From NCBI GenBank assembly GCA_965205975.1, contig OZ242195.1, positions 2,752,001-2,816,000 of the forward strand: a stretch of DNA of 64,000 nt, read 5' to 3'. The DNA comes from Candidatus Latescibacterota bacterium (GTDB lineage: Bacteria > Latescibacterota > UBA2968). A program made the translations under genes and the position numbers. Of the stretch, positions 55,237 through 62,987 are shown piece by piece; the first letter of the stretch is position 1, and each line of letters opens with the position of its first letter. The notes under the pieces were generated by a model. That model was not told the origin of the DNA. It was given only the letters and a program-made list of their open reading frames with translations, and ran no database searches.

Positions 55237-55464
55237 CTACATTGGCCAGGGAAAAGGGTTAAAGATATCTTCCAAATAATCTTCCAAAATATCGTCCAGT
55301 GTTGGGTCAAAATCCTCACTGGTATCATCTTCTGGGACCGGAAAACATCCATCAGCACCAGAGAGCCGAGCAATTTCAAGCCTATTCAAATCGCTCGTTT
55401 TAATCGGCAGATTGGTCACACCTGCGACCGATTGCTCGGGATTTGATACAATTCGTCTCGTCAT
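55237..55464 (-). CDS. Double-glycine-leader RiPP precursor, acidic core DGCFPVP...
   Basis: Leader LPIKTSDLNRLEIARLSGA; AAAGGAGG RBS. Confidence 0.75.
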   Translation of the reverse strand: MTRRIVSNPEQSVAGVTNLPIKTSDLNRLEIARLSGADGCFPVPEDDTSEDFDPTLDDILEDYLEDIFNPFPWPM

Positions 55465-55590
55465 TCCTCTCACCTCCTTTCTCCATAGCCTCAGCGCAAG
55501 CTACATCCCCGTGGCGCCGATCAGGGAGCTGTAAGCATATCGCTGATGGTATCGGATTCTGTAAAGGGTTTTATGGGGTGTGGCGCAATA

Positions 55591-55803
55591 CTACCAGGAA
55601 CCCCACCATTCACTCACCGCATCTCCAATATCATCAATAATATCTTCAATAAGTGGATCGTGCTCAGACAGATCTTCCCCTGGCAAAATGCACCCACCTA
55701 ATGTATTCGCCATCTCACCACGCACCAGTTCGATTTCTTGACCAGGAAGTTGAACACAGGTAGCAGAAACTTGTTCTGGCATTGATGTAATGCGTTCAGT
55801 CAT
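55591..55803 (-). CDS. Double-glycine-leader RiPP precursor, acidic core CILPGED...WWGSW
   Basis: Leader LPGQEIELVRGEMANTLGG; AAAGGAGG RBS. Confidence 0.78.
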   Translation of the reverse strand: MTERITSMPEQVSATCVQLPGQEIELVRGEMANTLGGCILPGEDLSEHDPLIEDIIDDIGDAVSEWWGSW

Positions 55804-55864
55804 TTCTTTCACCTCCTTTCTCCATAGCCTCAGCGCAACAGCGTCTCCTGCACCTGTACATCGA

Positions 55865-57268
55865 TCAGGGAGCCGTGAGCATATCGCTGAAGTGTCGAAT
55901 TTTGCGAAGCGTCTTATAAGCTCTATCGCGCGTCTCGCATAAGCCTATCAGAGCAGCTTCGACTTCGTTTGGGTGTAAATGTTGCATCAAATGAAGGCCC
56001 AAGCCTTCAATAAGGGACATATCTTGCCCAAAAAACGAAATGCGAGGCAACGGACCTTGCGCGCTTCCCAAATAGTTAAATCCTTTGGACACACTTTTCG
56101 GCACACCGGACATATCACACCCCTGTGTAAAACTCACGGTTATTGGTATCGGGCAGGCAGGTACATCGCGTTTGGTCCGCAGACTTTCAAACAGTGCCAT
56201 GTGCTGCTGTGCCGTATGATCCCAGGAAAATTCTAGTGCGCGTTTGCGAGCAGACTCACCCATTTCTACACGCTCCGTCTTGCTATCCAAAAAATCGCGC
56301 ACAGCATCTGAAATCACTTCTGGGGCGATATACCCCGTCACATTCAATGGCTCGTCTTCAAATCGCTCAATCTCGATCAACCGCCCACAACTGCCCAACA
56401 ACTCTGGCGCACCCGCAAAATTTGTCGCCACAACCGGAAGACCACACGCCATGCCCTCTATCACAGTGGAGGGACACGACTCATACGAATACACCGACAG
56501 CGCGCACAATACATCCAGCATATTGTAATACAGCGGCATATCCGTATAGGGTTGCGCGCCCAGAAAGATCACATTGGGCGGATGCGTCACGGGTGCGAAC
56601 TGCTTGCCAATCACCGCAAACAGCACATTGGGATTCAGATCGGCCATCCGCAAAAACGGATACGCACCCTTGCCCGGCTCAAACCGCCCGCAAAAACCCA
56701 CGACAGGCATCTCTAAAAAACGTTGATCACCCGTCTTATTCGCGACCTCCTTTCGCGCTTGCAACTTATCCATCGGCACAAACACCTCGGCATCTACCCC
56801 ATTGGTAATCGCATGCAAATACGATCTGTCAAACACCATCTTGCCCACTTCGTCAGCGACATACGCCGACTTGGGCGACAGGGCATCATAAGGCCGCAAC
56901 AGCGAATAACATTGAAGCACCTTATCTATAAAATCCCGATTGCGTCCAAAAGAACACGACAGCCGAATCACAATGGGTGCGGGACACACATGGCGAAAAA
57001 ATGCCAGGTCATCTACTTTGGGCTCAAACATCAGCACCCCATCAAAATCCTGCCGCGCAAACCACTGGCGAGACGCATCAATCGTCTCAAACTCAGGTCG
57101 AATACCGTGCAAATTCGGACCATAATCCACCGCTTCAGACGCTGGCATATACACATTGCAATACTTCGATAACGCCTGCACATGGTTAAAACCCGAAAGG
57201 GACGCCCCGCTATTCGACGCCATCACTTTTTCATGATCGTGATACGGATGTGACACATAAATTTTCAT
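55865..57268 (-). CDS. GT4-family glycosyltransferase with C-terminal extension
   Basis: ITNGVD, GRFEPGKG, ESCPSTVIEGMACGLPVV, FSWD motifs. Confidence 0.88.
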   Translation of the reverse strand: MKIYVSHPYHDHEKVMASNSGASLSGFNHVQALSKYCNVYMPASEAVDYGPNLHGIRPEFETIDASRQWFARQDFDGVLMFEPKVDDLAFFRHVCPAPIVIRLSCSFGRNRDFIDKVLQCYSLLRPYDALSPKSAYVADEVGKMVFDRSYLHAITNGVDAEVFVPMDKLQARKEVANKTGDQRFLEMPVVGFCGRFEPGKGAYPFLRMADLNPNVLFAVIGKQFAPVTHPPNVIFLGAQPYTDMPLYYNMLDVLCALSVYSYESCPSTVIEGMACGLPVVATNFAGAPELLGSCGRLIEIERFEDEPLNVTGYIAPEVISDAVRDFLDSKTERVEMGESARKRALEFSWDHTAQQHMALFESLRTKRDVPACPIPITVSFTQGCDMSGVPKSVSKGFNYLGSAQGPLPRISFFGQDMSLIEGLGLHLMQHLHPNEVEAALIGLCETRDRAYKTLRKIRHFSDMLTAP

Positions 57269-57360
57269 CTTTCACCTCATTAGGAATCGGCTTTCAGCCA
57301 TCAGCTTTCAGTTCCCCGCCCAGACACCCAAAGGTAATAGCTTGCTTGTTTTGCTAACTG

Positions 57361-60926: not shown

Positions 60927-60942
60927 TATTCACTTCTTTCTT

Positions 60943-61176
60943 CTAATAGCCATCATGTGCAAATACATACACATACCAGGAAGCCTGTTCTGGCCCTACC
61001 CCATTAGGGGGAGCATCACAATCCCAAATTTCAGCGAGTCGCGTCTTTTCCTGCTGGGCTTCCCGCTTAGAATTATAATGTCCCACAATCCTCCAATTTC
61101 TGAAGGAGCGATACCTGGATCGCCAATATCGCTTTCGCTCGTCAGGGTTCATAGTAATTCCAACTCGACAGGCCAT
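60943..61176 (-). CDS. Small basic hypothetical protein (GIY-YIG-like RVGITxNPxER)
   Basis: GGGGAG RBS; 77 codons, co-oriented with the cluster. Confidence 0.55.
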   Translation of the reverse strand: MACRVGITMNPDERKRYWRSRYRSFRNWRIVGHYNSKREAQQEKTRLAEIWDCDAPPNGVGPEQASWYVYVFAHDGY

Positions 61177-61350
61177 ATTCACTCCCCATGGTTTATGAGG
61201 TCACTTCCAAATCATAACGTCGCTGTAACAAAGACGCTTCTGCTTCTATAATTTCCATTCAAAGCCCAAAGCCTCGGTTCTTCTCGAACAGATTTAGTGG
61301 ATGATTCGCTTAAGAACAGGAGGCCTTGGGCTTTCAAAAGTTTGCGATTC

Positions 61351-62781
61351 CTATGATGCCACTTCCAGATCATATCGCCGCTGCAACAAAGACGCATCCG
61401 TCTCTGCAATCTCCATACATATCTCCATCGCCAGTTCATAGCGATAGCGCGTCTGTTCACAAGCAACAGGATTGGGATACATCGGATCACCCGTCGTCGT
61501 CCGCGCCTCCCAAAGACACCCGCCACCACACAAATTGCGCGCCCAGCACGTCTTGCACTCAGGCCGATTATTGACATTGAACTGCGCGTCAAAATGCTGC
61601 TGTTTTTCGCGATCAATACCCGCGAACACATCACCCATCTTAAACTCGGGCGCATCGGCCAAACTCGAACAAAAATAAATCGACCCATCCGCTGCAATCG
61701 CCAAATACTGCTTACCTCCCAGACACCCGTGACAGGATTTTTGGCGCGTCAAAAGTTTTTGAATCCTCGGATCAAACTCTTCACACTCTTCACCATTTAG
61801 AATAGCTTTGAGCGCACGTCGGCTCCGCCTGTAAATTTGCTGCTTCAAAACAGGTATGTGTTCTTCCCCAATAGCATAAGGCGCATCCGGTGAAACAACA
61901 GCCGAGCTAACAAGTGCGTTTTCAGTACCCAGAGAACGCAACGCATCGGCAATCTGATCCTCATCCATATCATACGCTGTCATAACAGCCTGCAGGTACA
62001 CGCGCTCAGGCACCTCATCAGTCAGTTTCTCCACATTCTTTGCCACAACATCATAAGTGCCAGAACCATTGTGAAACTTGCGAATGCGATCCTGTGTCTT
62101 ACGCCCCCCATCCAGGCTGACCTTAATCTGAAACTTTTCATCAACCAAAAACTGCTTCATCTCTTCGGTCAACAGCGTGCCATTGGTCACAATGCCAAAA
62201 CCAACCTGCACACCCAACCGCGCGCCCAGGGATTTGGCAAACGGGACAAGCTCCTGCATCAATGGAAAATTCAGGAGTGGCTCCCCGCCAAAAAAATCAA
62301 TCTGGCACCGTCCGAACACCTGGGCCTCAGTAACAATCCAGCGTATCGCCTGCTCTGCAACGTCTGGTTGCATCAGCATCGCCTTACCGCCGTAATCTCC
62401 ACCGTGGGCAAAGCAATAAGCACATTGGATATTGCACGAATGCGAAACGTGCAACGACACCTGCAAACGATCTGTCTGCGAAACCCCACAGGCAGCCACC
62501 CCTTCTGTTGTCGGCACATGGGATACCACAGGTAGTGCACCATCCGAAATCAAACCCACCTGAGCCAATTCCTCAATAGCCTCGACAATCTCCTCTGCCT
62601 CGTATTGATCGGCTAACTTCTGAACAACTTGTGAAGCCGACAACCCCTCACAACACTCTAAAACCGACAGGAAAAGAGTATCCAATTGAAAAAACAGACC
62701 CGTCTCTACCTGATAGACAATTGGCTGTTTTTGTTCTTCAGTTTGAAAAAGATGCATGTCGCATTTCTGAATGGATAGCAT
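61351..62781 (-). CDS. Radical SAM/SPASM peptide maturase with N-terminal RRE-like domain
   Basis: CNIQCAYC, FFGGEPLL, TNGTLL, SLDG; SPASM C...GSIYFC...CKTCWARNLCGGGC...C; N-terminal YQVETGLFFQLD...LAQVGLI wHTH-like segment. Confidence 0.93.
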   Translation of the reverse strand: MLSIQKCDMHLFQTEEQKQPIVYQVETGLFFQLDTLFLSVLECCEGLSASQVVQKLADQYEAEEIVEAIEELAQVGLISDGALPVVSHVPTTEGVAACGVSQTDRLQVSLHVSHSCNIQCAYCFAHGGDYGGKAMLMQPDVAEQAIRWIVTEAQVFGRCQIDFFGGEPLLNFPLMQELVPFAKSLGARLGVQVGFGIVTNGTLLTEEMKQFLVDEKFQIKVSLDGGRKTQDRIRKFHNGSGTYDVVAKNVEKLTDEVPERVYLQAVMTAYDMDEDQIADALRSLGTENALVSSAVVSPDAPYAIGEEHIPVLKQQIYRRSRRALKAILNGEECEEFDPRIQKLLTRQKSCHGCLGGKQYLAIAADGSIYFCSSLADAPEFKMGDVFAGIDREKQQHFDAQFNVNNRPECKTCWARNLCGGGCLWEARTTTGDPMYPNPVACEQTRYRYELAMEICMEIAETDASLLQRRYDLEVAS

Positions 62782-62807
62782 ACGAGGTACTCCTCAGAAC
62801 AAAGATG

Positions 62808-62987
62808 TCACTCGGCGTGATCAAAATCGTCCCAATCGTCATCGTCATTGGGAAAGGGCAAGGGAGGAACAGCAATAGGAGTCGGAGAACAGCCATATTC
62901 AAAACTATCCGTCGTCTCATATGTGTGAATACCTCCCTCTTTATCCATTGTTCCATTAATCAAGGTCAACTTGTGCCGAGTCGTCAT
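62808..62987 (-). CDS. RiPP precursor peptide (SCIFF-like leader, single Cys, Pro/Asp-rich core)
   Basis: MTTRHKLTLINGTMDKEGG...YGCSPTPIAVPPLPFPNDDDDWDDFDHAE; AAGGAGG RBS; directly upstream of the rSAM gene. Confidence 0.8.
   Translation of the reverse strand: MTTRHKLTLINGTMDKEGGIHTYETTDSFEYGCSPTPIAVPPLPFPNDDDDWDDFDHAE

Follow-up and report, generated by a model that had tools for sequence, protein, structure and literature searches.

Two peptide modules lie next to each other in the DNA analysed here, a stretch of 64,000 nucleotides of Candidatus Latescibacterota bacterium (contig OZ242195.1, positions 2,752,001 to 2,816,000; below, the window), and it is very probable that they are separate systems which are only juxtaposed at this place. 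Module A holds a precursor of 59 residues counted from its ATG, peptide A (62808..62987), and a maturase of the radical S-adenosylmethionine (rSAM)/SPASM type with an N-terminal RRE (61351..62781). Module B holds a glycosyltransferase (GT) of the GT4/GT-B type, here called GT467 (55865..57268), together with the double-Gly type precursors peptide B (55591..55812), peptide C (55237..55473) and peptide D (54747..55127) and an exporter. The genes of both modules are all co-oriented, and every gene mentioned below for the window is on its minus strand. The initial annotation had proposed that peptides A, B and C, in spite of different leader types, shared a CxPxP motif in front of an acidic tail, and that this motif was one common modification site (formylglycine, thioether or S-glycosylation). 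The explanation favoured here, with more confidence than doubt, is that of two independent modules whose precursors have Cys, Pro and acidic residues in common by chance. The chemical steps given for both of them are those that we infer.

The strings behind the proposal were confirmed. YGCSPTP in peptide A (62877..62897), GGCILPG in peptide B (55678-55698) and DGCFPVP in peptide C (55333-55353) are present on the minus strand, each is followed by an acidic, Trp-containing tail, and each core has a single Cys; the peptide B precursor has an additional Cys in its leader (Cys at positions 19 and 41). The CxPxP pattern fits peptides A and C, but peptide B reads C-I-L-P, that is C-x-x-P, and the Gly in front of its Cys closes the double-Gly cleavage site, which has Leu at -12 and Met at -7. 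The leaders of A and of B/C do differ; they make two types in all, since B, C and D share one double-Gly type family. None of peptides A, B and C matched a Pfam or NCBIfam family. The likeness of the three strings exceeds the genome background: in the long open frames of this genome 0.25% of the Cys residues stand in a C-x-P-x-P context and 0.74% in the looser G-C-x(x)-P one. However, three strings are not three independent cases. Direct repeats at 55432-55546 and 55771-55890 (together 55432..55890) contain the duplicated GT467 3' end and start region, the copied sequence agreeing over 68 nt (82%) and over 29 nt (93%), with approx. 340 nt between the copies. Since each of B and C follows such a copy of the GT467 3' end and ribosome-binding region, B is a duplication-derived paralog of C, and the two are not counted as independent.

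The motif was not conserved in the homologs, which removes it as a common modification site. C-x-P-x-P was present in 4 of the 37 genus-level and none of the 6 order-level homologs of peptide A and in 20 of 103 database homologs; it was absent from all 17 B-type precursors and was kept solely in the C-type (7/7). By these counts the CxPxP in the peptide A of the window is a chance feature of an uncommon variant. Since the pattern arises in 4 of 37 A-family loci, it can coincide with that of the C family within one window without an enzyme common to both.

The genomic distribution of the modules points in the same direction. This genome has three rSAM units with an A-type peptide and three GT467 units with double-Gly precursors, and they are adjacent only in the window. 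In the 10 near-complete genomes containing both, one of the 23 rSAM copies was within 100 kb of one of the 19 GT467 copies, the next nearest being at 100,257 bp. Among 35 distinct GT467 loci (36 rows with one duplicate) the PCAT exporter was found downstream in 33, the exceptions being the genome L067 and a 5.6-kb contig; a GT28-like gene was upstream in 32, and an rSAM gene was in the flank of only one. After 20 other rSAM loci GT467 was found in none, a methyltransferase-like gene in 11, a sigma-54 AAA gene in nine and a distant PCAT-HlyD-PpiC set (38-55%) in one. GT467 was detected in all of 20 same-genus genomes and a close rSAM in 15. With this query no close rSAM was found in G001, G009, G011, G017 and G018, which are 97-99% complete and all have GT467; despite this, G001 holds a B-type and G011 a C-type precursor. 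Because modules A and B separate elsewhere, the action of one enzyme on one common site is contradicted. At L277, an rSAM locus of another genome, the gene is followed by a transposase, a 198-residue double-Gly type precursor and a distant PCAT-HlyD-PpiC set without GT467; here module A has been joined to an exporter for a second time, independently of the window.

Thus the part of the proposal that stands is the modification of the Cys itself: it is probably modified, by a thioether in A and possibly by S-glycosylation in B and C, though by different enzymes.

In order to describe the precursors of module B, a leader profile was iterated, which gave 72 distinct double-Gly precursors. The cleavage register of PCAT, taken from PMC12457901 as hydrophobic residues at -12 and -7 and Gly at -2, fits 71 of the 72 when Thr or Phe at -7 is allowed in seven. 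All 17 B-type precursors read GG/C-[IL]-L-P, all seven C-type cores contain C-[FY]-P-x-P, and the cores of the remaining 48 are unrelated. In the window, peptide B has a double-Gly leader cut as GG/CILP with the Cys as core residue 1 and an acidic tail ending in Trp, peptide C belongs to the same leader family with GA/DGCFPVP and the Cys as core residue 3, and peptide D, again of this family, has G-L at the cleavage register and a Gly-zipper core without GCxP. The G-L in place of G-G was seen in peptide D and 18 relatives (19/71) and is a possible non-canonical cleavage site. In some double-Gly precursors (L047/L109, L110) an acidic stretch is followed by as many as seven consecutive Cys at the C-terminus, which may bind metal. 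A Cys, Ser, Thr or Tyr occupies core position +1 in 37 of 71 precursors against a background of 20%, a hint only, as the rows are related and not independent events; the close orthologs L042, L043, L047 and L049 swap Cys, Ser and Tyr there.

An alignment-based structure model of GT467 (pLDDT 91.4) has a GT-B fold in residues 1-368 (Z 29.3, rmsd 3.6 over 339), and the E263-x7-E271 pair is intact, with E263 in 32/35 and E271 in 34/35 aligned rows. The GT4 family is a retaining one. Behind this part comes a C-terminal domain of about 100 residues, specific for the subfamily, which was modelled with three strands and three helices; fold searches were dominated by the GT-B part, and an atlas search of this domain returned no usable match. 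Among 1.8 billion representatives 42 matches to GT467 were found under 1e-30. The N-terminal domain of 21 of the 35 aligned GT467 relatives matched the RRE of the rSAM at 98.6%, the controls reaching 4% at most, and in a quick tree the subfamily that includes GT467 and the RRE-fused GT4s was supported by 97% SH-aLRT. This kinship suggests peptide glycosylation. In the proposed scheme GT467 and its GT28-like partner, present in the window as a fused GT4 + GT28-like glycosyltransferase (57361..59958) the C-terminal half of which has a counterpart ahead of GT467 in 32 of 35 loci, would attach sugar to a nucleophilic residue close to the start of the core in B, C and D; in B and C this would be the Cys. 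PCAT would then cut the leader and export the peptide via HlyD. We lean slightly towards an action of GT467 on double-Gly peptides; an action on the Cys of B and C is plausible, but less probable than not.

Several findings weigh against this assignment. GT467 itself has no N-terminal RRE, and RRE profiles gave clear scores in this genome for its three rSAMs alone. The profile match of the GT467 C-terminal domain to RREs was low (5% and 2%), and in the quick tree the GT467 clade is sister to the RRE clade and not nested in it. Given the missing RRE and the sister position, what speaks for an action of GT467 on peptides is thus its relatedness and its gene order. There is no Cys in 15 of 71 cores and no nucleophile at +1 in 34 of 71. 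Genome L067 has GT467 without precursor or exporter, and the exporter/PpiC genes were found in 15 of 15 genomes of genus g7 in which GT467 was not found, so the double-Gly leader appears chiefly as an export signal. Some of these observations would suit an alternative in which the product of the module B glycosyltransferases is a cell-surface or small-molecule glycan and peptides B, C and D leave the cell without modification, as bacteriocin-, pheromone- or anionic-peptide-like products using their Cys for disulfides or metal binding. Among solved structures, GT4s acting on small molecules and lipids (MshA, BshA, PimA) come closest, the cores share no acceptor motif, nucleotide-sugar genes lie further downstream in the window, and the atlas neighbours of peptide B are ComC/class II bacteriocin leaders, at scores of at most 0.86, which is a lead and no more. 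However, GT467 stands directly upstream of the precursors in an order fixed down to 51% identity, and its subfamily consists mostly of RRE-fused members lying beside precursor peptides. We consider this alternative a serious one, to which somewhat over a third of our belief goes.

The relatives fused to an RRE deserve attention on their own. They occur, with up to 11 matches per genome, in 41 of the 121 genomes from the phylum that includes a Poribacteria record, often paired and beside Cys-rich precursors which have leaders that we take to be pilin-like and are accompanied by an A24-like peptidase. No specific NCBIfam family was matched by the Poribacteria precursors and GT checked. The Poribacteria loci L113 and L254-L272 are expanded clusters. 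They hold paired RRE-GT4 genes, of which one is frequently degenerate, as well as an A24-like peptidase and several cassettes in which a Cys-rich precursor precedes a propeller protein of 330-390 residues; the Cys-rich precursors gave 43 profile matches. These clusters are probably the most interesting lead. A pattern scan of genomes with the RRE-GT4 alignment returned one true relative among 80 loci, the others being generic GT4s of 22-36%.

The export genes of the window are a cNMP-C39-ABC exporter of the PCAT type (50337..53351), a HlyD adaptor (48856..50259) and a PpiC-like protein (48080..48859), which is the fixed companion of the exporter; a CPBP/Rce1-like membrane protease (53355..54242) is a further accessory of module B. 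The initial annotation had explained the PpiC-like protein by the Pro-rich context of the motif. An active parvulin has a dual-His active site. In the PpiC-like proteins the two His columns, placed by eye on the parvulin consensus, contain Trp in 20/20 and Ala in 17/17 of the distinct rows read there. The gene stands behind PCAT-HlyD, also where the cores are rich in Gly/Ser/Thr, and was present in 40 of 61 relatives, some of them without a detected rSAM or GT467. Because both parvulin His columns are replaced and the gene follows the exporter, the prolyl isomerase argument fails; the PpiC-like protein does not single out the Pro-rich motif. It would rather act as a non-catalytic chaperone of export.

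Turning to module A, a leader-only pattern gave 40 distinct A-type peptides, of which 34 neighbour genus-level rSAMs and six neighbour rSAMs of 49-53% identity; with three more genus-level peptides read by eye, 37 genus-level loci were available. Peptide A has a KLTLING-type leader, a Cys, a loop of six residues, the segment V-P-x-x-P-F-P and an acidic tail. The Cys is present in 37/37 loci, seven residues before V-P in 36 and six in one, and in YGCSPTP it is the sole invariant residue: Gly precedes it in 22/34 and Pro follows at Cys+2 in 20/34. Asp or Glu at Cys+4 was found in 3/34 of these loci and in 8/103 database matches, and Thr at Cys+5 in none of the 34. The 103 database matches were word-seeded and are consequently query-biased, the query itself being counted; the Cys is present in 103/103, the spacing of seven in 101, C-x-P-x-P in 20 and G-C-x-P-x-P in six, and 75 different loops occur among them. 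In the 101 matches with this spacing V/I at +7, P at +8, P at +11, F at +12 and P at +13 are constant. The six distant homologs have a C-x-[WG]-[PW]-like string and end in F-[PR]-[VIL]-L-P-P-P, without G-C, C-x-P-x-P or the acidic tail. The PCAT register fits none of the 34 A-type peptides.

The maturase was placed by profile scores and alignments to PDB structures. Its best models were SCIFF (259 bits), nif11 (249), QhpD (249) and PapB (231), against 112 for anSME (TIGR03942; 112.4 against a cut-off of 349.45 bits, not passed), and it aligned with CteB at 204 bits across residues 20-454 and with anSME at 66 bits. A set of 40 close homologs was compared, from which seven tandem second copies of less than 38% identity were excluded. 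The columns of the anSME ligand Cys261 and of Asp277, which stands after the AuxI Cys, contain Lys/Arg and Ser in 40/40. The seven auxiliary-cluster Cys of CteB, as listed in PMC10177961, map to C353, C371 and C422 and to C409, C412, C418 and C441 of the window enzyme and are invariant in 40/40. We propose that the rSAM binds the KLTLING leader via its RRE, would hold the single Cys at the first auxiliary cluster and would abstract a hydrogen from a non-acidic residue of V-P-x-x-P-F-P. In the window this segment is VPPLPFP (62850..62870), and the best guess for the cross-link acceptor is the Val at Cys+7. One thioether ring (-2 Da) would thereby be closed around the hypervariable six-residue loop, and the fixed Cys-to-Val spacing fits a ring. 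A thioether in peptide A is considered moderately probable.

Some data are less favourable for a thioether. The rSAM is under every family cut-off, including those of the equivalogs (SCIFF 259/425, QhpD 249/453, PapB 231/340 bits). Its catalytic site reads F-F-V/T/A-S-S-S, while CteB has F-F-T-S-H-Q in PMC10288494, which makes Ser-Ser of His-Gln; the comparison covers these six residues of CteB only. The loss of His-Gln would fit a thioether to an apolar residue. An extra Cys350, found in 37/40, could fill the open cluster site and might be a substitute fourth ligand. Among the deeper relatives, of which L022 is frameshifted, L023, L024 and L026 keep the single Cys but have other residues downstream in place of the VP segment.

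Some of these points would also serve an alternative in which the rSAM oxidises the Cys of peptide A at C-beta to a thioaldehyde or formylglycine, as anSME-like enzymes do, or performs other non-thioether chemistry. It is favoured by the one invariant Cys without a conserved Asp/Glu/Thr partner, by positions 5-6 of the catalytic site and by the possible eighth SPASM Cys, and these rSAMs are the best matches of the genome to the anSME model, though sub-threshold (113 vs 349). On the other hand, the full-length similarity, the RRE and the Cys set follow CteB, the two anSME columns are not kept, and the Cys-to-Val spacing suits a ring. The substrate motif of anSME, C/S-x-P-x-R, is in none of the three window peptides, and CxPxR was found in 0/72 double-Gly precursors and in 1/34 and 3/103 of the A-type ones. 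In addition, alongside the 74 sulfatase-like frames of the genome there are 15 matches to the FGE family, the best at 283 bits. Formylglycine, one of the modifications suggested initially, is therefore unlikely, the anSME scores being far under those of the thioether maturases, and the alternative as a whole has a low probability.

That C-x-P-x-P is after all one recognition site, with one enzyme acting on all three peptides, is very improbable: the strings are real and of a kind found in under 1% of genomic Cys contexts, the window genes are co-oriented, the C-type keeps its motif, Pro at Cys+2 is common in the A-type, and both modules occur somewhere in 15 of 20 same-genus genomes, where action in trans is possible, but the motif is missing from 17/17 B-type and 33/37 A-type peptides, genomes without a detected rSAM still hold B- and C-type peptides, and the modules are linked once in 23.

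Compared with known systems, module A resembles CteA-CteB (SCIFF/ranthipeptide, PDB 5WGG), PapA-PapB and QhpC-QhpD in the combination of RRE, radical SAM and SPASM with a precursor directly upstream, and the ranthipeptides in general in the adjacent precursor with a conserved donor Cys. With CteB it shares the seven auxiliary-cluster Cys and the positions 1, 2 and 4 (Phe, Phe, Ser) of the catalytic site; it differs by Ser-Ser for His363-Gln364 and by Cys350. PapB needs CX3D, and CteB links Cys to Thr, whereas module A has neither CX3D nor a conserved Thr acceptor. It also differs from ranthipeptides in having one core Cys, a Pro-rich invariant segment and sigma-54 control, and most of its loci lack an exporter or protease of their own. 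Neither PPLPFP nor a Latescibacter entry is present in the table of precursors in PMC10288494, and a Cys-to-Val/Pro acceptor is not among the characterised ranthipeptide acceptors in the cited literature. From anSME (PDB 4K36), likewise a SPASM-family radical SAM, the enzyme differs by its alignment scores, its RRE, the two columns named above and the lack of CxPxR substrates. Module A would thus be a ranthipeptide-like single-ring system that falls under the equivalog cut-offs and outside the known acceptors.

Module B resembles the glycocins (sublancin, glycocin F, thermoglycocin), as they are described in PMC12457901, in the double-Gly leader with hydrophobic -7/-12 residues, the PCAT, the adjacent glycosyltransferase and the candidate Cys/Ser acceptors. 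The glycocin GTs are predicted GT2 enzymes (PMC11912497), in place of which module B has GT4/GT-B and GT28-like enzymes. The B and C cores are anionic with the candidate Cys at core +1/+3, and since they have one Cys, nested disulfides as in glycocins cannot form; the HlyD of Gram-negative type with its PpiC-like partner is a further difference. RRE-glycosyltransferase fusions have been predicted, and are uncharacterised, in RRE-Finder (PMC7470986), and the 2025 update (PMC12710340) names PF00535 (GT2) fusions; the GT4s here are PF00534 with an extra C-terminal domain, and the member in the window has no RRE. Module B would accordingly be read as a glycocin-like export system with GT4 enzymes, apart from glycocins in GT family and disulfides. 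No description of either module was found in open-access full texts, most subscription papers being outside that scope, and neither module appears to have been characterised before.

Upstream of peptide A lies the 3' end of a gene for a Ser/Thr kinase-AAA-TPR-GAF-sigma54 activator of approx. 1600 residues (63300..64000), which runs on beyond the window. Between the two there is a match (63046..63061) to what we take to be the sigma-54 -24/-12 promoter consensus, and a strict match to it was found upstream of 23 of 40 peptide A homologs; the kinase-fused activator would drive this promoter of module A. The RNA data (a single run, contigs only, word share 0.05, mostly 85-95% alike) have no bearing on transcription. 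Just downstream of the rSAM gene there is a leftover copy of its 3' end (61212-61274; 21 codons, 81% identical), followed by a hypothetical protein of 79 residues (60943..61182; after the rSAM in 3 of 20 other loci) and a probable methyltransferase-like protein with weak Pfam matches only (59994..60926; after the rSAM in 11 of the 20). A 19-bp inverted repeat (54676-54733) just downstream of peptide D is terminator- or stabiliser-like. The cargo after the rSAM differs greatly from locus to locus; an S8 peptidase-DUF1611 fusion with an acyl-carrier-like protein was found downstream at G000:C1:3079633-3084518, L290, L017 and L018. In deeper relatives (L016, L021-L026, L028) a second, divergent rSAM stands in tandem, some with a degenerate CxxxCxxC, and in L025 and L028 the tandem pair precedes GT4 and flagellar export genes. 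A metagenome scan with the rSAM gave one close locus among 10.

Taken further than the window, and as a speculative proposal, GT467 and its RRE-fused kin would be undescribed GT4 peptide glycosyltransferases which attach an alpha-linked sugar to Cys, Ser, Thr or Tyr of exported peptides, forming a class of glycosylated, ribosomally synthesised and post-translationally modified peptides independent of the GT2 glycocins, with double-Gly leaders and PCAT in Latescibacterota and pilin-like leaders and an A24 peptidase in Poribacteria, while alongside them the rSAM would make a Cys-to-Val/Pro thioether. With the tempting but wrong unifying motif removed, two small, directly testable systems from uncultured bacteria remain. 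The pair of rSAM and peptide A, with one fixed Cys and 75 natural loops, is a candidate for a macrocyclase that tolerates varied sequences and uses a non-acidic acceptor. The other system brings a GT4 subfamily associated with precursor peptides in both phyla, which, should its members glycosylate peptides, would be a route to S/O-glycopeptides apart from the GT2 enzymes of the glycocins.

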